From assembly GCA_022710725.1 (NCBI GenBank), contig JAKLGK010000001.1, forward strand, positions 113,010 to 177,009: a stretch of 64,000 nt of DNA. The letters are read 5' to 3'. Origin of the DNA: Verrucomicrobiota bacterium. Its GTDB lineage: Bacteria > Verrucomicrobiota > Kiritimatiellia > CAIQIC01 > JAGNIJ01. The notes beneath the pieces are model-generated. The model made no database searches and was not told the DNA's origin. It worked only from the letters and a program-made list of their open reading frames with translations. A program made the position numbers and the translations under genes. How positions within the stretch are numbered: position 1 is the first letter of the stretch; every line of letters starts with the position of its first letter. Below are positions 15,275-41,085 of this stretch, piece by piece.

Positions 15275-16276
15275 ATGGCTTCCAACAAGAACAAGCGCTA
15301 TTGGGTCGGCTTCGACCTGGGCGGCACGAAGATGATGGCGACGGTCTTCAACGAGGGATTCAGGCCGCTGGCTTCGGAAAAGGTCAAGACCCGCGCACAG
15401 AGCGGTCCCCGGCAGGTGCTGTCCCGCCTGCTGGACACCATCCAGGCCGCCGTGGGCCAGGCGCATCTCAAGATGTCCGAGATAGCGGGCATCGGCGTGG
15501 GGTGCCCGGGCCCGCTGGACCTCGACCGAGGGGTGATCCTGACGGCGCCGAACTTGGGGTGGCGCAATGTGCCCCTGAAGAACACGTTGGAGAAGAGGTT
15601 CGGCTGCGCGGCAACGATCGCAAACGACGTGGACGCAGGGCTGTACGGCGAGTTCCGGTTCGGCGCGGCGCGGAAGGCCCGCTGCGCGCTGGGCGTTTTC
15701 CCGGGCACGGGCCTGGGCGGCGCCTGCGTCTACGAGGGGAAGCTGTTCCGGGGCAAAAAGGGCTCCTGCATGGAGATCGGGCATATTCCGGTCGAACGGG
15801 GCGGCCGGTTGTGCGGCTGCGGGCAGCGGGGGTGCCTCGAAACCGTCGCCAGCCGTCTGGCCATCGCGGCGGAGGCCGCCATGGCCGCGCACCGGGGCGA
15901 GGCTCCGCACCTGCTGGGACTCGCGGGCACCGACGTGGGCGCCATGAAGAGCGGCACACTGGCCAAGGCCATCGAGGCGGGGGATCGCGTGGTCGAGCAG
16001 ATCGTGCGCAACGCCGCGCAGAAGCTCGGCGGCGCCCTGGCCGGCGTGGTGAACCTGCTCGCGCCGGATGTCCTCGTCCTGGGCGGCGGGCTGGTGGAAG
16101 CCATGCCCAACCTGTTCCTGGGCGAAGTCCGCAAGGTGATCGAGGACAAGGCGATGAAGATGTACGCGGACGACCTGAAGATCATGCCCGCGAAGCTCGG
16201 CGACGCGGCGACGGCCATGGGCGCCGCCGCGCTCGTCGCCGACATGATCAAGGCGCGGGAGGAAGAGGACGCATGA
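15275..16276 (+). CDS. glk: ROK-family glucokinase (possibly polyphosphate/ATP-dependent)
   Basis: 'GFDLGGTK' ATP-binding motif and ROK Zn motif 'CGCGQRGCLE'. Confidence 0.85.
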   Translation: MASNKNKRYWVGFDLGGTKMMATVFNEGFRPLASEKVKTRAQSGPRQVLSRLLDTIQAAVGQAHLKMSEIAGIGVGCPGPLDLDRGVILTAPNLGWRNVPLKNTLEKRFGCAATIANDVDAGLYGEFRFGAARKARCALGVFPGTGLGGACVYEGKLFRGKKGSCMEIGHIPVERGGRLCGCGQRGCLETVASRLAIAAEAAMAAHRGEAPHLLGLAGTDVGAMKSGTLAKAIEAGDRVVEQIVRNAAQKLGGALAGVVNLLAPDVLVLGGGLVEAMPNLFLGEVRKVIEDKAMKMYADDLKIMPAKLGDAATAMGAAALVADMIKAREEEDA

Positions 16277-17886
16277 GCCCGGATCCCGTCCCGGCGCCCG
16301 AGAGCCCCGCGCCCCCGCGGAACGTCCGCATGGCCGCCGTCATCGACATCGGCGCCACGGCGATCCGCATGGAGATCGCCGAGATCGACAATCAGGGCGG
16401 CGTGCGCAAGCTGGACAGCCTCTCGCACGGCGTCCAGTTGGGCAAGGACACGTTCACCCGCGGGCGGATCCAGCAGTCCACGATCCAGGAGTGCGTGGAC
16501 GTCCTCAAGGGATTCCGGCGGGTCATGGACGAGTACGGCATCACGAAGCCGGAGCAGGTCCGGGCCGTGGCGACCAGCTCGGTGCGCGAGGCGCAGAACC
16601 GGGACACCTTCCTCGACCGCATCTACATCACGACGCGCATCAACGTGCGGGCGATCGACGAGGCGGAGGAGAACCGGCTGACCTTCATGGCCGCGCAGAC
16701 CGTCCTGGCGGACGAGCCCGAGTTGGAGACCGGGTCGCTCCTGGTCGCCGACGTGGGCGGCGGGAGCACGGAGCTGCTGCTGCTCCAGGAGGGGCACATC
16801 GTATTTTCGGATTCGTACCGGCTGGGCTCGCTCCGCATGCGGGAAACCCTGGAGACGCACCGGGCGACCACCGAACGCGTGCGGACCATCCTCGGCCAGC
16901 ACATCCAGCGGCTCGTCGAGCAGGTCGTGCGCAACCTGCCGGTCTCCACGGTCCCCGTCCTGGTCGCCATGTCGGGCGACGCGCATTTCGCCGCCGCGCA
17001 GCTCTGCCTGGACTGGTCCGAGCGGAAGACGGCGCGCCTCGACTACAAGGCCCTCGCGGGCCTCAACGACAAGCTGCTCCCGACCAGCGTCGCGAAGCTC
17101 GTGGGCAAGTACCAGCTGACCTACCAGGAGGCCGAGACCGTCGGCCCGGCGCTGCTGGTGTACCAGCACCTGGCGCTGGCGTTCAAGGCCGAGCACATCC
17201 TCGTGCCGAAGGCCAGCTTCCGGGACGGCCTGCTCAAGGAGATGACGCTGCGCGGCTACTGGACCGGCTCGTTCGCGGACCAGGTCCGCCATTCCGCCCT
17301 GGCCCTGGCGGAGAAGTACAACGTGGACGCCGCCCACGCGGCGCACGTCGCGGACCTGTGTGTGCGGCTGTTCCGGGAGCTGCAGCCCGAGCACCAGCTG
17401 GACCAGCGCTACGAACTCCTGCTCGAGGTCGCCGCGCGCCTCCACGAGGTCGGCGGCTTCATCAGCAGCCGCAGCCACCACAAGCACTCGCTCTACATCA
17501 TCCAGCACAGCGACCTCTTCGGCCTGACGCGCGAGGACCTGGCCATCGTCGCCCTGGTCGCCCGCTACCACCGGCGCGCCCTGCCCGCCGCGACGCATCC
17601 CGAGTACATGGCCCTGGGGCGCGACGACCGGATCACGGTGTCGAAGATGGCCGCGCTGCTCCGCGTCGCCGACGCGCTGGAGCGCAACCACCTGCAGCAG
17701 GTCCGCGACCTGGACTTCGCGCGCGAGCCGGGGCAGTTCGTCATCCGCGTGCGCAACGTCGAGGACCTGACCCTGGAGCGCCTGGCCCTCAAGGAAAAGG
17801 GCGGCCTGTTCGAGGAGGTCTACGGCATGCCGGCGGTGCTGAAGGAGGAGCGGTTCGAGGACGCGGAGGCGCGCGATGGCGCCTAA
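16273..17886 (+). CDS. ppx: exopolyphosphatase / guanosine pentaphosphate phosphohydrolase (Ppx/GppA)
   Basis: ASKHA N-terminal 'AAVIDIGATAIRMEI' and 'VADVGGGSTEL', plus a C-terminal HD-like region. ATG at 16273 overlaps the glk stop. The upstream 324 codons of the ORF are rejected. Confidence 0.85.
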   Translation: MSPDPVPAPESPAPPRNVRMAAVIDIGATAIRMEIAEIDNQGGVRKLDSLSHGVQLGKDTFTRGRIQQSTIQECVDVLKGFRRVMDEYGITKPEQVRAVATSSVREAQNRDTFLDRIYITTRINVRAIDEAEENRLTFMAAQTVLADEPELETGSLLVADVGGGSTELLLLQEGHIVFSDSYRLGSLRMRETLETHRATTERVRTILGQHIQRLVEQVVRNLPVSTVPVLVAMSGDAHFAAAQLCLDWSERKTARLDYKALAGLNDKLLPTSVAKLVGKYQLTYQEAETVGPALLVYQHLALAFKAEHILVPKASFRDGLLKEMTLRGYWTGSFADQVRHSALALAEKYNVDAAHAAHVADLCVRLFRELQPEHQLDQRYELLLEVAARLHEVGGFISSRSHHKHSLYIIQHSDLFGLTREDLAIVALVARYHRRALPAATHPEYMALGRDDRITVSKMAALLRVADALERNHLQQVRDLDFAREPGQFVIRVRNVEDLTLERLALKEKGGLFEEVYGMPAVLKEERFEDAEARDGA

Positions 17887-19990
17887 GGCCGACCGGTTTT
17901 TCAACCGGGAGTTGAGCTGGCTCGCCTTCAACCGGCGCGTGCTGGAGGAGGCGCAGGACGCCTCCCTGCCCCTGCTGGAGCGCCTGAAGTTCCTCGCCAT
18001 CACGAGCTCCAACCTCGACGAGTTCTTCATGATCCGGGTCGGCGGCCTCCAGCAGCTGCGGGCGCAGGGCTGGGACGGCGCGGACGCCTCCGGGCTGACC
18101 GTGAAGGAGCAGCTCGCCGAGATCGGCCAGGCCGTACGCGGCCTGATGGCGGACCAGTACGCGTGCCTGCTGAACGGCCTGGAGCCGCGGCTGGCCGAGC
18201 AGGGCATCCGCCGCATGGATCGCGGCAGCCTGACGCCGGAGCAGGACGGGTACGTGGAGGCGGTGTTCGAGCACGAGATCTTTCCGATCATCACGCCGAT
18301 GGCGGTGGACATCGAGGAGCCGTTCCCGCTGCTGCCCGGCCTCGGGCTCAACCTGTGCGTCCGGCTCAAGGCCGTCCGCGGCGCCGAGCTGCCGCGCTTC
18401 GCCGTCATCCCCCTGCCCCGCGGCCTGGCGCGGTTCGTCACCGTGCCCACCGACGCAGGCTTCCACTACCTGCCGATCGAGGACCTGGTCACCGCCTACC
18501 TCGACCGCGTGTTCCCCGGCGAGCCGATCCTGGAGTGCATCCCCTTCCGGATCACCCGCAACGCGGACTTGAGCGTGGCCGAGGACGCCGCGAGCGACCT
18601 GCTCTCGCAGATGAAGGAAGTCCTGACCGAGCGCAAGCGCAGCCCGTGCATCCGGCTCGAGATCGGCGACAAGCCGTCGGACATCCTGCTCGGCTTCCTG
18701 CGCAGCGCCCTCGACCTGTCGGACCAGGAGGTGTACCCCGCGCCCGGGCCGCTGGACCTCGCGGCATTTTACCGGCTGGCGAGCATGACGGGCTTCGACC
18801 ACCTGAAGATCGAGGACTGGCCGCCGCAGGCACCGCCGGACCTCCCGCCGCAGGAGCCGATGGTCGACGTCCTGGCGCGGCGCAACGTTCTGCTCTACCA
18901 CCCCTACGACAGCTTCGACCCGGTGGTGCGGTTCATCGAGGAAGCGGTGAACGATCCCAACGTGCTGGCCATCAAGCAGATCCTTTACCGGACGAGCGAG
19001 AACAGCCCGGTGGTCGCCGCCCTGGCGCGCGCGGCCGACCGCGGCAAGCACGTGACCGTGGTCGTGGAGCTCAAGGCCCGCTTCGACGAGGCGCGCAACA
19101 TCGGCTGGGCCACCGCGCTCGAGCACGCCGGCGTCCAGATCATCTACGGATTGAAGGGGCTGAAGACCCATGCGAAGATCTGCATCATCGTGCGCCGCGA
19201 GCCCGGCGGGATCCGCCGCTACGTGCATTTCGGGACCGGCAACTACAACGAGAAGACCGCGCGCCTGTACAGCGACATCAGCTTCATGACCTCGGACGAG
19301 GATTACGGCGCCGACGCGTCCTCGTTCTTCAACACCATCACCGGCTACTCCCAGCCCGTCCGCTACCGCAAGATCGAGGCCGCCCCCATCGGCCTGCGCG
19401 ACCGGCTCCTGGACCTGATCCAGAACGAGATCGAGCGCTGCAAGCAGGGCCAGCCCGCGCGGATCATGGCCAAGTTGAATTCCCTGGCCGATCCCGAGCT
19501 GATCCAGAAGCTCTACGAGGCCTCGAAGGCCGGCGTGAAGATCGAACTCAACGTTCGCGGTATCTGCTGCCTACGGCCCGGCGTGCCGGGCTTGAGCGAC
19601 CACATCACGGTCATCAGCATCCTGGACCGGTTCCTCGAGCACAGCCGCCTCTTCTACTTCCACAACGGCGGCGAGGAGCTGGTCTTCATCTCCAGCGCGG
19701 ACTGGATGCCGCGCAACCTCGACCGCCGCGTCGAGCTGCTGGTCCCGGTCGAGGATCCGGAAGGCCGGGCCCGCCTGGTATCGATCCTCGAAACGAGCCT
19801 CCAGGACAACGTCAAGGCGCGGCGGCTGCGTCCGGACGGGACGCACGAACGCCTGTCGGCCCCGGCGAAGCAGAAGGCCGTCCGCAGCCAGGAGGTCTTC
19901 TATCGCCGGGCCGTCGAGACCGCCCGCGCGGCGGCCTCCGCGTCGGGGCCCGTCTTCGAGCCGCACCGGCCGGCCGGGGCCCAGCCGTGA
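17876..19990 (+). CDS. ppk: polyphosphate kinase 1
   Basis: 'FFNRELSWLAFNRRVLEEA', with two PLD-like HKD regions ('THAKICII'). Start overlaps the ppx stop. Confidence 0.9.
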   Translation: MAPKADRFFNRELSWLAFNRRVLEEAQDASLPLLERLKFLAITSSNLDEFFMIRVGGLQQLRAQGWDGADASGLTVKEQLAEIGQAVRGLMADQYACLLNGLEPRLAEQGIRRMDRGSLTPEQDGYVEAVFEHEIFPIITPMAVDIEEPFPLLPGLGLNLCVRLKAVRGAELPRFAVIPLPRGLARFVTVPTDAGFHYLPIEDLVTAYLDRVFPGEPILECIPFRITRNADLSVAEDAASDLLSQMKEVLTERKRSPCIRLEIGDKPSDILLGFLRSALDLSDQEVYPAPGPLDLAAFYRLASMTGFDHLKIEDWPPQAPPDLPPQEPMVDVLARRNVLLYHPYDSFDPVVRFIEEAVNDPNVLAIKQILYRTSENSPVVAALARAADRGKHVTVVVELKARFDEARNIGWATALEHAGVQIIYGLKGLKTHAKICIIVRREPGGIRRYVHFGTGNYNEKTARLYSDISFMTSDEDYGADASSFFNTITGYSQPVRYRKIEAAPIGLRDRLLDLIQNEIERCKQGQPARIMAKLNSLADPELIQKLYEASKAGVKIELNVRGICCLRPGVPGLSDHITVISILDRFLEHSRLFYFHNGGEELVFISSADWMPRNLDRRVELLVPVEDPEGRARLVSILETSLQDNVKARRLRPDGTHERLSAPAKQKAVRSQEVFYRRAVETARAAASASGPVFEPHRPAGAQP

Positions 19991-19991
19991 C

Positions 19992-20876
19992 ATGAACGCG
20001 CCGGGGATCCAGCCTTCGGAATCGGCCGCCGAGTTCCTTCGACGTCACATCCTCGCGCAGGCCGAGGTCATCCGGCGGACGGAGGACGGCGTTCGGGCGG
20101 GACGGGAGGGCCCGCTGCACGACATGCGGGTGGCCATCCGGCGGCTGCGCACGCTCCTGCGGGCTTTCCGCAAGCCGCTGGCGGAGACGCGTGCCGCCGC
20201 GGTAGAGGAAGGATATGCCCGCCTGCTGAAGGAACTCGGCCCCGCCCGCGACACGGACGTCTGGATGCTGTTCCTGAAGCGCCACCCCGTGCTACGGCGC
20301 GGCGCGTCGGCGCGCTTCCTGGCCGCGCAGAAGAGGGAGAAAGCCCGCCGGCAGCAGCAGGTCCGCGAACGGCTGGAGAGCGCGGAGAATGGCGCGCTGA
20401 AAGGAGCGCTGGCGCGGCTGATCGACGAGGATCTCAAGCCCGGCACGCTTCGCGTCCAGCCGAACCCGGCGGCCGACCTCGGGCGCCGGGCGCTGCGCAA
20501 GGCGCTGAAGCGGATCCACCGGCGCGCGCGGGGGCTACCGCGCCTGTCGCCGGAAAAGATGCACCGCCTGCGCATCGCGTGCCGCAAGGCGCGGTACGTC
20601 GCCGAATTCCTCTCCGGCGCGTGGGACGCCCCGCTGGACGCGCTGGCCCGGCGGTTCAAGGCCATCCAGGACGTCCTGGGCGACGTGCACGACCAGGACG
20701 TGTACCTCGCGCACCTGCGGACCTGCCGGCCCCGGCCGCCGGCGCGGATGCTCCGGTCCATCCATCTCCAGCGCGACCGCGACCGGCTCCGGTTCGAGGA
20801 GGACTGGGCCCGCTTCGTGAAGCCGCGCTACCAGCGCAGGCTGGATCGCATCCTGTCCCCGCGCCGTTCGCCCTGA
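19992..20876 (+). CDS. CHAD domain-containing protein
   Basis: Conserved His/Arg helices 'HDMRVAIRRLR' and 'HRLRIACRKARY'. It starts 1 nt after the ppk stop. Confidence 0.8.
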   Translation: MNAPGIQPSESAAEFLRRHILAQAEVIRRTEDGVRAGREGPLHDMRVAIRRLRTLLRAFRKPLAETRAAAVEEGYARLLKELGPARDTDVWMLFLKRHPVLRRGASARFLAAQKREKARRQQQVRERLESAENGALKGALARLIDEDLKPGTLRVQPNPAADLGRRALRKALKRIHRRARGLPRLSPEKMHRLRIACRKARYVAEFLSGAWDAPLDALARRFKAIQDVLGDVHDQDVYLAHLRTCRPRPPARMLRSIHLQRDRDRLRFEEDWARFVKPRYQRRLDRILSPRRSP

Positions 20877-20880
20877 TGGC

Positions 20881-20914
20881 GGGCTGGCCACACTTTGCAA
20901 AGTGTGGCCAGCCC
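20881..20914. repeat. perfect 34-bp palindrome (GGGCTGGCCACACTTTG|CAAAGTGTGGCCAGCCC)
   Basis: Read directly from the sequence, 5 nt after the CHAD stop and ~80 nt before the kinase start codon. There is no U-tract on either strand. It could be a terminator-like hairpin or a dyad-symmetric operator. Confidence 0.55.
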
Positions 20915-20995
20915 CTCTCCGCCGCCGAATCATGGCCGCGGGGCGGGTTTGACCTTGAATCCGGCGGCGCGGAGGGGCAGATTCATGGGCGCGCC

Positions 20996-22708
20996 ATGAG
21001 CAGGGCCCGCGATACAGCCTCGGCCGCGCCGGGCGTGGAGGCCTCGGCCGGCAAGTACCCCGGCAAGGGCTTTCACATCGGCGAATACGTGATCACGGAT
21101 TTTCTCGGCCACGGCTCGATGGCCTCCGTGTATCTGGCGGTGGACGGCACCGGCCACGAGGTGGCCCTCAAGGTTTTCCAGGAGGGCCCCGGCGTCTCGG
21201 CGACCATGCTCGAGCGGTTCCGCCGGGAGGCGGAGGCCTCCAAGAAGCTGCGCCGGCATCCCAACATCATGCCGATCTACGGCACCGGGCGCGACGGCCC
21301 CTACCACTACATCGCCATGGAGTCCATCCGGAACAGCCGCACGCTGGAGGCCGCGCTGGAATCCACGCCGATGAGCCTCCTGCGCGTCGTCGAGATCGCG
21401 ATCCGCATCGCCCGCGCCCTCCAGTACGCCCACACGCACAACATCGTGCACCGCGACGTCAAGCCGACGAACATCATGATCGACGAGTTCGAGGAGCCGC
21501 TCCTCTCCGATTTCGGCGTCGCGGAGCTGATGGACTGGCCGTCCTGCACGCTCACGGGCGCGCTGACGGGGACGCCGCTCTACATGTCGCCCGAGCAGGC
21601 CCGCGGCGAGCGGGTCGGGCCGGCCAGCGATATCTACTCGCTGGGCGTCGTGCTGTACGAGGCCGTGACGGGCGTGATGCCCTACGCCATCCAGCACGGG
21701 TCGCCCGTGAAGGACGTGCTGGAGGCCGTGAAGAACGAGTTGCCGCGGCGGCCGCGCCTGTTCCGCAAGGAGATCTCGCCCGACCTCGAGGCGGTCCTGT
21801 TCAAGGCGCTGGAGAAGGAGCCGCGGGACCGCTACGTGGACGCCGAGGCCTTCGCCCGCGATCTCGAGCGGGTCCAGGCGGGCCGTCGCGTCAGCGCCCA
21901 CCGGTTTTCGATCCTCGCCTACCTGCGGCACCTCGCACGGCGCCACCAGCAGGGGTTGCTCATCTTCCTGGCCATGGCCGCGCTCCTGTCGGGAGCCGGC
22001 TTGCTCTTCCGGCAGCGGCTGCTGCGCACGCGCTTCGAGGAGGTCGTGCGCCGCGCCCAGTTGAAGAACGCCCTCTACATGCTGGCCGAAGCCGAGAACG
22101 GCGCCGGCTTCGAGCGGGAGACCCCTCGGGCGTGGAACGATATCCGGCTGGCGCGCAAGGCCATGATCGGCAGCGATTGGTCCGCCGCGCGGGACGGTTT
22201 CCGGGCGGCGGCGGACATCAGCCGCTCCGTGGGCGACACCCGGACCGCGGCCATCGCCGAACTGGACCAGGCCCGGTGCGAAATCATGCTGCAGGACCGG
22301 GCGGCCGCCCAGGCCCTGTACCACCGCATCCTGACCAACCCCGACGCCTCGCCGGCGATCGCGAACATGGCCCAGATGGAAAGCATCGAACTGGCCCTGC
22401 TCGCGGGCGACCGGCCCCGGGCGTTCGAGGTGCTGATGCTGCGCACCCCGCCCGCCGAAGGGCCGATCCGGACCGCGATCAAGGGGCTGGCCGGCGACCT
22501 GTCCAGCCGGGCCGTCGCGGAGTCGGTGGAGCGCATGCAGCACCCGTTCCAGAACGACGCGTACGTGGCCGCGGCCATCCGGGCCTACCTGGACGGCGAA
22601 ATCCGTCTTGCGGTCGGGTATATGAGGCGCGCCATCGAGCTATCGTCGCCGCCCTCGGAATGGCCGGCGCCCTTCGCGCGCCAACTCTTCAACGAGGTGG
22701 ACCGCTGA
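20996..22708 (+). CDS. membrane Ser/Thr protein kinase (Hanks-type) with extracytoplasmic TPR-like domain
   Basis: 'HRDVKPTNIM', 'DFGVA' and 'SPEQ', then a TM segment 'LLIFLAMAALLSGAGLLF' and a ~230-aa C-terminal domain. Start is ATG at 20996. The 139 upstream codons of the ORF span the palindrome and are rejected. Confidence 0.85.
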   Translation: MSRARDTASAAPGVEASAGKYPGKGFHIGEYVITDFLGHGSMASVYLAVDGTGHEVALKVFQEGPGVSATMLERFRREAEASKKLRRHPNIMPIYGTGRDGPYHYIAMESIRNSRTLEAALESTPMSLLRVVEIAIRIARALQYAHTHNIVHRDVKPTNIMIDEFEEPLLSDFGVAELMDWPSCTLTGALTGTPLYMSPEQARGERVGPASDIYSLGVVLYEAVTGVMPYAIQHGSPVKDVLEAVKNELPRRPRLFRKEISPDLEAVLFKALEKEPRDRYVDAEAFARDLERVQAGRRVSAHRFSILAYLRHLARRHQQGLLIFLAMAALLSGAGLLFRQRLLRTRFEEVVRRAQLKNALYMLAEAENGAGFERETPRAWNDIRLARKAMIGSDWSAARDGFRAAADISRSVGDTRTAAIAELDQARCEIMLQDRAAAQALYHRILTNPDASPAIANMAQMESIELALLAGDRPRAFEVLMLRTPPAEGPIRTAIKGLAGDLSSRAVAESVERMQHPFQNDAYVAAAIRAYLDGEIRLAVGYMRRAIELSSPPSEWPAPFARQLFNEVDR

Positions 22709-22710
22709 CC

Positions 22711-23253
22711 ATGGCCCCGCATCCTCCAGACCCCGGCCGCGCACGGACGCACCGGCGCCGCGGCTTCACGCTGATCGAGCTCCTCGTGGTCGTGCTGATC
22801 CTGGCCATCGGCATCGTCTGGACCGTCCACCACGTGCGGCAGCAGCGACTCACGCGCCGGTGCGCGGAGCAGCTGTGGCACATCTACACGGCCCTGGAAA
22901 TGTACGAAATCGACCGGGGCACGCTGCCCCGGCTGGCCTTTTTCCCAAACGATCCGAAGCAGGACGCCGACAGCCTCTTCACCGTGATCCAGCCCTACAC
23001 CGCGTCGGAGGGGCTGACGGTATGCCCGGCCCTGCCCCCGGCCCAGCGGGCCCTCGGCCTGACCTACGTCTGGAACGTGGAGAACAACGGGCGCAAGCTG
23101 CATCCTCCGGGCGTCGCCAGATGGATGCTCGTGGAGATCAGCGCGCTGTCGGATTCCGTGCCCCCTCCGCACGAGGGGCGCTACCACATCCTGTACTCGG
23201 ACGGCCAGGTGGAGCTGTCCGAAAATCCCCCGCCCGACCTGCGGCGGCTGTGA
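22711..23253 (+). CDS. prepilin-type N-terminal cleavage/methylation domain protein (type II pseudopilin-like)
   Basis: 'RRGFTLIELLVVVLILAIGI' is a class III signal peptide. It starts 3 nt after the kinase stop. Confidence 0.75.
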   Translation: MAPHPPDPGRARTHRRRGFTLIELLVVVLILAIGIVWTVHHVRQQRLTRRCAEQLWHIYTALEMYEIDRGTLPRLAFFPNDPKQDADSLFTVIQPYTASEGLTVCPALPPAQRALGLTYVWNVENNGRKLHPPGVARWMLVEISALSDSVPPPHEGRYHILYSDGQVELSENPPPDLRRL

Positions 23254-23262
23254 CCTTCCCCG

Positions 23263-24144
23263 CTACTGGATCGTGCTCTTGGTGGCCTTGACCAGCGCCT
23301 TCCAGAGCTGCTCGGGGGTTTCCGCCTCGAACAGCCGGTCGCGCGCGTCCTCTTCCTGGAACGTCTGGGCCAGGCCGGACAGCAGCTTGAGGTAGAAGGC
23401 GCTCGCGGCCGTGGGGATGACCATGAAGAACACGATCCTCGTGAGCGCCCGGCCTGGCCCGCCGAAACGGATGCCCTTGCGGTGCAGGCCCAGCGCGAGC
23501 GTCAGGCCCCCGCCCTCCACGCCGCGGACGTGGGGAAAGGCCAGCCCATGCTCTACGGCCGTGCTGATGATGGCCTCCCTTTTCAGCGCCTCCTCCTGCA
23601 GCCGGCCCGCGTCGTCCACGAAGCCTTCCGCCTCCATCTTCTGGCACATCTCCGCGATCACCTCGTCGCGCTCCTGCGAGACCAGCTGGGGGATCATCAG
23701 GTCCACGGACGAGAAGCGGTCGATCCCGACCTTGGCGGGCTCGCTGCGCCGTTTCCGGCGCCCGATATGTCGGGGTAACAACTCGGGGTAGTACAGCATG
23801 CGCGCGCAGTTCGGACAATGATGCAGCGAATCGGCGGCATGAACGGCGTGCACCAGGCTCACCGGCAGCGACATGCCGCACGCCGAGCACACCCCGTTCG
23901 CCACGGGCACGATGGCCAGCAGGCCCTTCTTCTCGATCTTCTGGTAGCGGGCGGCGATCTCGGGGGGAAGCTGTTCGACCAGGGTCTGAATGGAGGCATC
24001 CAGTTGGGAGAGGCGGGCGCCCTGCATGGAGGCCTCCTGTTGGGCGCGGGCCACGCGCAGCTCCTGCAACTGGATCAAGTGATTGATGACGCGGTGCATG
24101 CTTCCTTTCTTATGCGCGGCAGCGATAACAACGGAATCGCTCAT
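23263..24144 (-). CDS. fusion protein: coiled-coil/C4 zinc-ribbon (COG1579-like) + PTS EIIA type-2 (PtsN-like) domain
   Basis: N-terminal half has 'CSACGMSLP...HHCPNCARMLY'. C-terminal half has 'DLMIPQL...GLAFPHVRGVEGGGLTLALGL', with a His in the PtsN phosphorylation-site context. Confidence 0.65.
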   Translation of the reverse strand: MSDSVVIAAAHKKGSMHRVINHLIQLQELRVARAQQEASMQGARLSQLDASIQTLVEQLPPEIAARYQKIEKKGLLAIVPVANGVCSACGMSLPVSLVHAVHAADSLHHCPNCARMLYYPELLPRHIGRRKRRSEPAKVGIDRFSSVDLMIPQLVSQERDEVIAEMCQKMEAEGFVDDAGRLQEEALKREAIISTAVEHGLAFPHVRGVEGGGLTLALGLHRKGIRFGGPGRALTRIVFFMVIPTAASAFYLKLLSGLAQTFQEEDARDRLFEAETPEQLWKALVKATKSTIQ

Positions 24145-41049: not shown

Positions 41050-41085
41050 CAAAAAAGAAGAGGCGGGCCGCCGCCGGCCCGCCTC
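41050..41085 (-). terminator. rho-independent terminator of the giant gene
   Basis: On the minus strand: GAGGCGGGCC-GGCGGC-GGCCCGCCTC followed by TTCTTTTTTG. It begins 25 nt after the stop at 41110 and separates the giant gene from the esterase gene. Confidence 0.7.

Follow-up and report, generated by a model that had tools for sequence, protein, structure and literature searches.

In the standard arrangement of ArsR/SmtB repressors, an inverted repeat lies over the -10 element of the regulator's own promoter. The inverted repeat CIRCE (TTAGCACTC-N9-GAGTGCTAA), bound by HrcA at a few heat-shock operons per genome, is reported to act as a DNA operator and, once transcribed, also as an mRNA hairpin. 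Repetitive extragenic palindromes (REPs) are species-specific. A GTAG or CGTC tetranucleotide tag marks one end of them (PMC3733652). The element examined here, a perfect 34-bp palindrome at positions 20881-20914 of a 64-kb stretch of Kiritimatiellia DNA (contig JAKLGK010000001.1; hereafter the window), lies between a polyphosphate operon that ends in a CHAD gene and a Ser/Thr protein kinase gene, and it shares traits with each of these systems. It belongs to a dispersed palindrome family that is tied tightly to the gene of a fused double-ArsR protein, both at the promoter of that gene and past its stop codon, and it is most likely a binding site of this protein rather than a one-off operator or an ordinary terminator. 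By analogy, the element would be an ArsR/SmtB-like autoregulatory operator at its home gene; its distribution is REP-like.

The palindrome and the portion of it that defines the family are as follows.

20881-20914, no strand assigned: perfect 34-bp palindrome, consisting of the 18-nt family core with 8 extra complementary pairs on each side
20889-20906, no strand assigned: family core CACACTTTGCAAAGTGTG, arms CACACTT and AAGTGTG flanking a central TGCA

All 17 of 17 positions of the two arms (GGGCTGGCCACACTTTG, followed without a spacer by CAAAGTGTGGCCAGCCC) are complementary, which confirms what the sequence-only reading had claimed, and none of 100 dinucleotide shuffles gave a match. This is the longest perfect palindrome of the window (68.7% G+C), the runner-up being a perfect hairpin with 11-bp arms at 41060-41085 (GAGGCGGGCCG CCGC CGGCCCGCCTC), and its core has a G+C content of 44%, against 69% for the genome. 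The predicted hairpin is much more stable than shuffled sequence, both as RNA in an 81-nt context (z = -5.2) and as a 42-nt DNA hairpin (-19.6 kcal/mol; z = -5.9). It is no assembly artefact, since it was found in eight of eight same-species contigs from NCBI, JGI, ENA and Logan assemblies and the five longest of these match the window without a single difference over the aligned spacer. Three of the contigs from Logan break off exactly at the palindrome; de Bruijn assemblers typically break at palindromes.

Within the window the element stands alone: a search allowing up to three mismatches returned this copy only, a search of the 64 kb for degenerate copies found none besides 20881-20914, and the half-site GGCCACACTTTG, which the sequence-only reading had singled out, has no copies beyond chance elsewhere in these 64 kb. 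Neither end of the window copy carries a GTAG or CGTC tag, and no such tag appears in the family alignment. Rfam returned no family at gathering score, only sub-threshold chance matches (sX13, which scored 26 bits where 50 are required, and some microRNA models). A sigma-54 promoter (TGGCAC-N5-TTGC, with GG and GC 10 nt apart) was considered and rejected, because the corresponding spacing in TGGCCACACTTTGCA is 9 nt; the sigma-54-like GG doublet is not conserved across the alignment of the palindrome family.

Beyond the window, the 18-mer CACACTTTGCAAAGTGTG has exact matches in at least 112 stretches of a one-genome-per-species collection, where by our estimate about 9 would be expected by chance in the whole 596 Gb. 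PVC-superphylum labels (here the Planctomycetes-Verrucomicrobia-Chlamydiae group and its sister phyla) stand on 89 of 112 (about 80%) among the matches listed, namely Verrucomicrobiota, Lentisphaerota, Kiritimatiellota and one Omnitrophota, and several oddly labelled bins among the matches carry PVC-type genes. The window site is a bona fide member of this family, which resides mainly in PVC-superphylum genomes, and its host, a member of the Kiritimatiellia assembled from anaerobic-digester and wastewater metagenomes, lies inside the family host range. The three richest assemblies among the matches listed hold 18, 17 and 10 copies, and a search of viral contigs for the 18-mer gave zero matches. 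Our literature search found no paper with ACTTTGCAAAGT and none linking PVC bacteria, ArsR and a palindrome, and the REP survey PMC3733652 covers repeat types other than this one; the motif family and the function of the fused protein are apparently undescribed. At L040 4340-4380 and L096 6600-6640 (Kitasatospora putterlickiae), the 18-mer lies beside a second motif, ACTTTGCAAAG, and appears unrelated to the PVC family.

The home gene of the family emerged from clustering of the open reading frames (ORFs) near 134 copies, which yielded one recurrent neighbour: a double winged-helix protein of about 190 aa at nine loci in three phyla. The protein combines HTH_20 and HTH_5/ArsR domains (Pfam) and has the invariant motifs PTLWRTCR and TAFTHPRR, an invariant Cys17 and a near-invariant His119. 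As an independent test, 80 metagenome loci were fetched by protein similarity alone (partly redundant, with 64 distinct upstream regions); in 77 of the 80 the family palindrome, with at most four mismatches, lies just 5' of the start codon, and the 78th locus has an obvious arm variant. The arms CACACTT and AAGTGTG are conserved in these home-gene copies, while the central four positions vary (TGCA, TGTA, TATA, CGGA, TCGA and others). When the 64 distinct upstream regions are oriented by the gene, a conserved TTGAC occupies positions -14 to -10 relative to the core, and a 17-nt spacer then puts a -10 hexamer, CAAAGT, inside the palindrome. The ATG follows 3-4 nt past the core, or 7-8 nt past CAAAGT, which is where transcription would be expected to start, so the gene appears leaderless. 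The motif thus makes up the spacer and -10 region of the home-gene promoter, the classical position of an autorepressor operator. The sequence-only reading had offered a dyad operator for a dimeric regulator as one candidate, and this part stands in so far as the core is the motif over an ArsR-type promoter; the idea of an operator private to the ppk/CHAD operon or the kinase gene does not.

A second copy commonly follows the home gene. Sixty-one loci reach at least 300 nt past the fused-ArsR gene, and the 49 distinct downstream copies mostly start 9-30 nt past its stop codon (41 of 49; median about 19 nt). The two copies resemble one another: lineage-specific half-site variants (CATAC, CACACC, CAGAC, CACACAT, CGGAC) are common to both in 10 of 19 cases, compared with 3.0 +/- 1.4 after shuffling of partners, and at 20 of 48 loci the 28-mers up- and downstream of the gene are near-identical, agreeing at 25 or more of their 28 positions. 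No -35 boxes accompany the downstream copies and no T-tracts follow them. No conserved neighbours of the fused-ArsR gene were found at the home loci, which argues against an operon partner or a transposase, and only HTH_20, HTH_5 and related winged-helix Pfam hits were obtained for the flanked gene itself, with no HUH/Y1 transposase and no catalytic domain. In several Verrucomicrobia loci (among L057, L064, L080 and L017), the palindrome sits between the fused-ArsR gene and a divergent gene for a conserved hypothetical protein of about 400 aa (MAFRIHDSVVRGEIDNR...) without a Pfam hit; of these four bins, two bear the labels Haliangiales and Bifidobacterium, which are probably wrong.

At E <= 1e-15 the protein family comprises at least 2024 members; those that have a name are called only 'ArsR family' or 'HTH'. 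Structure prediction was confident (predicted local distance difference test score, pLDDT, 94.2), and each half of the chain superposes on ArsR/SmtB repressors (SqrR, HlyU, NolR, SmtB, CzrA). Each half matches the winged-helix domains of this family (SmtB, CzrA, CadC, NolR, HlyU, SqrR) in sequence and in fold, and the family inverted repeat overlaps the -10 element of its own promoter at the home copies as in those systems. Unlike them, two ArsR-like domains are fused in one chain of about 190 aa, with none of the solved structures compared matching the whole; the operator is near-invariant across three phyla, with a second copy past the stop codon; and there are many intergenic copies with covarying flanks, of which the window copy overlaps no promoter. 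The likeness to CIRCE/HrcA lies in a perfect inverted repeat whose sequence is kept over wide phylogenetic distance and, in the case of CIRCE, is bound by a winged-helix repressor. CIRCE, however, is not dispersed, does not form arrays and does not lie on both sides of the repressor gene.

The surroundings of the window copy comprise the following features.

15275-20876, forward strand: upstream operon ROK-ppx-ppk-CHAD (Pfam hits and called genes on source contigs)
15275-16276, forward strand: ROK-family kinase gene, glk (Pfam hit)
about 16273-17886, forward strand: Ppx/GppA gene (Pfam hit)
17876-19990, forward strand: polyphosphate kinase gene (Pfam hit)
19992-20876, forward strand: CHAD protein gene (Pfam hit), stop codon TGA at 20874-20876
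20943-20999, forward strand: conserved spacer block, near-invariant in five of five orthologous spacers (alignment)
20996-22708, forward strand: Ser/Thr protein kinase gene (Pkinase hit), start at ATG 20996 and not at the in-frame ATG 20876

The palindrome starts 5 nt past the CHAD stop codon and its core 12 nt past it. Four relatives keep the gene order ROK-ppx-ppk-CHAD-kinase, followed by a gene with an N_methyl domain (prepilin-like), and differ in what stands behind CHAD.

L121 (CHAD identity 87%): GGCCATACTTTGCAAAGTATGGCC, changed in both arms by a compensatory pair, CACAC to CATAC and GTGTG to GTATG
L123 and L124 (CHAD identity 85%): decaying copy with three to five symmetry-breaking changes
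L125 (CHAD identity 77%): a pair of perfect copies separated by a 56-nt AT-rich spacer, with the CHAD stop codon supplied by the first copy
L127 (CHAD identity 63%): family copy absent, unrelated G+C-rich hairpin at the same place

The post-CHAD copy has thus persisted in part of the clade, within which the core is better conserved than the surrounding spacer. In L125 (6903-6994) and also in L126, the stop codon within the palindrome reads gtgTGAtat, and the AT-rich 56-nt segment resembles an insertion in a G+C-rich spacer. The core starts 12-14 nt past the CHAD stop codon in the three species with a single copy (the window species, L121 and L123). The distance from the palindrome to the promoter-like block of the kinase gene, by contrast, is 57.5 nt in the window, 70.5 nt in L121 and 54.5 nt in L123, and in L125 it is 35.5 nt for one copy and 109.5 nt for the other. 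A constant distance on one side and a variable one on the other argue that the position of the element is tied to where CHAD ends and not to the kinase promoter.

These distances bear on the interpretation that the palindrome is a classical local operator, through which a dimeric regulator would control the kinase gene or the ppk/CHAD operon. In favour of this, the perfect dyad precedes the conserved promoter-like -35 box of the kinase gene by 57 nt, and the motif does sit as a promoter operator at the regulator's own gene. Nevertheless, we consider a local operator very unlikely because, besides the variable distance to the promoter block (35.5-109.5 nt) and the fixed position behind CHAD, the site overlaps no -35 or -10 element, is decaying in one species that keeps its promoter block intact, and belongs to a motif dispersed in many unrelated contexts. 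At the window copy, GATGG and TCTCC occupy the would-be -35 position, and no regulator gene adjoins it.

Outside the 18-mer, the sequence differs from copy to copy yet remains paired. Among 124 distinct copies, the first to fifth positions beyond the core form Watson-Crick pairs in 81, 77, 77, 59 and 52% of cases, compared with 26-37% after shuffling, and pairing falls to chance from the sixth position outward. The flank covariation score is 0.316 as against 0.118 +/- 0.009 in shuffles, none of 500 of which reach the observed value, and slid controls give 0.08-0.13. Typically, then, the element spans about 28 bp, and its centre, CACACTT-N4-AAGTGTG, is conserved in sequence while its base of about five pairs per side covaries; the 34-bp window copy, with its eight extra perfect pairs per side, is among the longest of the family. 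G.T and A.C mismatches in the stem show no strand bias (25 against 27), which argues that the symmetry is held at the level of DNA and does not reflect a constraint on RNA folding.

An alternative interpretation is that the window element works as RNA, a 15-bp G+C-rich hairpin at the end of the ppk-CHAD mRNA that would act as a terminator without a U-tract, as a pause site or in protection of the 3' end, its likeness to the motif being secondary. It begins 5 nt past a stop codon and is predicted to fold into a very stable hairpin; at this place another G+C-rich hairpin occurs in the most distant orthologue, and the consensus fold keeps a helix there. The downstream copies at regulator genes lie at similar distances past the stop codon, and a few copies have A/T tracts like those of bidirectional terminators (L081 at 1917, L165 at 4563). 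The position of a G+C-rich hairpin directly past the stop codon at the end of an operon is likewise that of the intrinsic or U-tract-less terminators of high-G+C bacteria. The sequence-only reading was right, however, that there is no U-tract here: a terminator scan gave no site at the palindrome, and the 3' sequence CTCTCCGCCGCC contains no T run. A plain terminator, moreover, needs no apical stem and loop conserved in sequence across phyla, as these are; G.U wobble is not favoured on the sense strand, so that both strands appear equally constrained; intergenic regions between divergent genes contain copies no less often than the other kinds do; and the copies close to the promoter precede the inferred start of transcription and hence would not be transcribed as hairpins. 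We therefore consider an RNA element rather unlikely as the main explanation.

Our preferred interpretation is that the palindrome, an orphan copy of the family (a copy away from a fused-ArsR gene), is probably a binding site of the fused-ArsR protein that would form a boundary after the ppk-CHAD operon. The fused protein would bind the dyad, repress its own leaderless gene and also occupy orphan copies. In the window, the CHAD stop codon precedes the site by 12 nt, and the promoter-like block of the kinase gene follows it after about 40 nt. Bound protein, a very stable hairpin if the site is transcribed, or both may delimit the glk-ppx-ppk-CHAD unit here and keep read-through from reaching the kinase promoter.

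Several observations weigh against this interpretation. No homologue of the fused-ArsR protein was found in the 64-kb window by tblastn; two candidates for the regulator of the window organism, P0090 and P0091, were rejected because they belong to other metagenome-assembled genomes. Orphan copies are mostly intergenic (at most about 22% lie inside genes, an upper bound), and -35 boxes at them are at background level, with no enrichment of nearby start codons over random positions. Flanking genes have no preferred orientation (23 tandem leftward, 22 convergent, 21 tandem rightward and 17 divergent), and those inspected by eye are functionally unrelated housekeeping genes (trpA-like, thioredoxin-like, ABC ATPase, alanine dehydrogenase, FabD, UbiD), so that the orphan pattern looks more like that of a dispersed repeat than a coherent regulon. 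We caution that these context statistics come from a crude caller of genes by G+C at third codon positions and are hence rough; the same caller places the window copy inside an over-extended kinase ORF. Simple binding to duplex DNA also does not explain why variable flanks stay complementary, which could reflect recognition of a hairpin or cruciform, copying of whole elements within genomes, or template-switch correction of quasi-palindromes, a known mutational process. Furthermore, the recognition helices of the two winged-helix domains differ, and a single fused pseudo-dimer would not obviously prefer a perfect dyad; perfect two-fold symmetry combined with unlike helices favours a symmetric dimer over a single-chain pseudo-dimer. 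Finally, the copy in L123 and L124 is decaying, and the most distant relative has its unrelated hairpin instead.

Much of this is what would be expected of the main rival explanation, in which the palindrome is a REP-like, selfish or neutral dispersed repeat and the post-CHAD copy is a relic of its spread with no specific local function. Spread would proceed by copying, gene conversion or template-switch 'correction', and any protein binding would serve the element family; the explanation is thus compatible with binding. Besides the unbiased orientation, the unrelated neighbours and the decay or loss of the copy in relatives, it accounts for the many copies per genome in some assemblies, for lower-stem sequences that copies in one genome often have in common (GGTC...GACC in Lentisphaeria JAFGRS01, CGAT...ATCG in JBDNHZ01), and for tandem arrays (L045 700-960, period about 85 nt) and composite repeats (L065 3600-4060, about 270 nt) that contain the palindrome. 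The pair of copies around the AT-rich insert in L125 fits the same picture, and the near-identity of up- and downstream copies at home genes suggests concerted evolution. In one array unit, both the loop and an arm carry mutations (ccacactttgcaggctgtgg).

The family also shares with REPs and the REPIN-RAYT systems (REP doublets forming hairpins and REP-associated tyrosine transposases) that short extragenic palindromes are dispersed and sometimes clustered, and that the associated gene is flanked by element copies. The flanked gene, however, encodes a winged-helix DNA-binding protein and not a Y1 (HUH) transposase, the tag is lacking, and the 18-nt core is identical across three phyla, unlike the species-specific REPs. 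Within the clade of the window species the core outlasts the spacer, and one species has a compensatory double change. The sequence-only reading had held that many dispersed identical copies would make the palindrome a REP-like repeat; this is borne out for the family, with its at least 112 stretches. The 64 kb of the window contain a single copy. We regard a purely REP-like origin as possible, if on the doubtful side.

An interpretation that joins the two, and which we regard as quite improbable, is a dedicated system of Verrucomicrobiota, Lentisphaerota and Kiritimatiellota in which a double-ArsR protein is paired with a deeply conserved palindrome spread through intergenic DNA in REP-like fashion without a transposase, bound copies punctuating operons as factor-dependent transcription boundaries (roadblocks or insulators) or as DNA-bridging sites. 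Genome punctuation of this kind would form a new class, and redox state or metals might switch it through the invariant Cys and near-invariant His; the post-CHAD copy would then control whether transcription of the polyphosphate operon continues into the Ser/Thr kinase gene.

Bacteria of the PVC superphylum abound in soil, water, guts and digesters, and to our knowledge very little is known about their gene regulation. The protein and DNA motif described here form a pair conserved at phylum scale, with a defined promoter architecture, and if orphan copies were occupied by the fused-ArsR protein, they would constitute either a global regulon or intergenic boundaries of a new, protein-marked kind. 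The motif also explains recurrent contig breaks, as contigs L006, L007, L008, L031, L079, L111, L116 and L206 each have an end that lies at most a few bases from a palindrome copy, which indicates that assemblers break at the element. It explains mis-called gene starts as well, through a 'HTLQSV' peptide (P0125 and several stop-to-stop ORFs called through the palindrome) or, in the reading frame of the window, 'WPHFAKCGQ'.

At the kinase gene, gene callers and public annotations differ between a protein of 610 aa and one of 570 aa. Orthologues from four related species are conserved from MS(R/K)A onward, and the part upstream of this cannot be aligned as protein; conservation from ATG 20996 onward thus supports the shorter form and a non-coding palindrome, in agreement with the sequence-only reading, which had called the ORF extension 'MAGWPHFAKCGQP' spurious. 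Two readings of the conserved block at 20943-20999 can be drawn from its sequence. It may be the kinase promoter, with a putative -35 box TTGAAT (20955-20960), a 17-nt spacer and CAGATT (20978-20983), in which case the kinase ATG lies a few bases past the expected start of transcription. Alternatively, it may hold a GGAGG Shine-Dalgarno sequence and a four-codon upstream ORF (ATG 20985, MGAP/MCAP, TGA 20997-20999) that would overlap the kinase ATG at 20996. An imperfect inverted repeat directly 3' of the palindrome (CCCCTCTCCGCCGCCGAATCATGG / CCTTGAATCCGGCGGCGCGGAGGGG, 20911-20979) might allow a C-rich stretch to pair with the GGAGG that precedes the kinase gene; the repeat came to light only through the chance microRNA matches in Rfam, and RNAalifold on four species did not recover it as such. 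Farther downstream, at 23253-23263, the N_methyl (prepilin-like) gene and a Zn-ribbon/PTS-EIIA gene converge, and their stop codons are separated by only 9 nt, too few for a terminator hairpin to fit between them.

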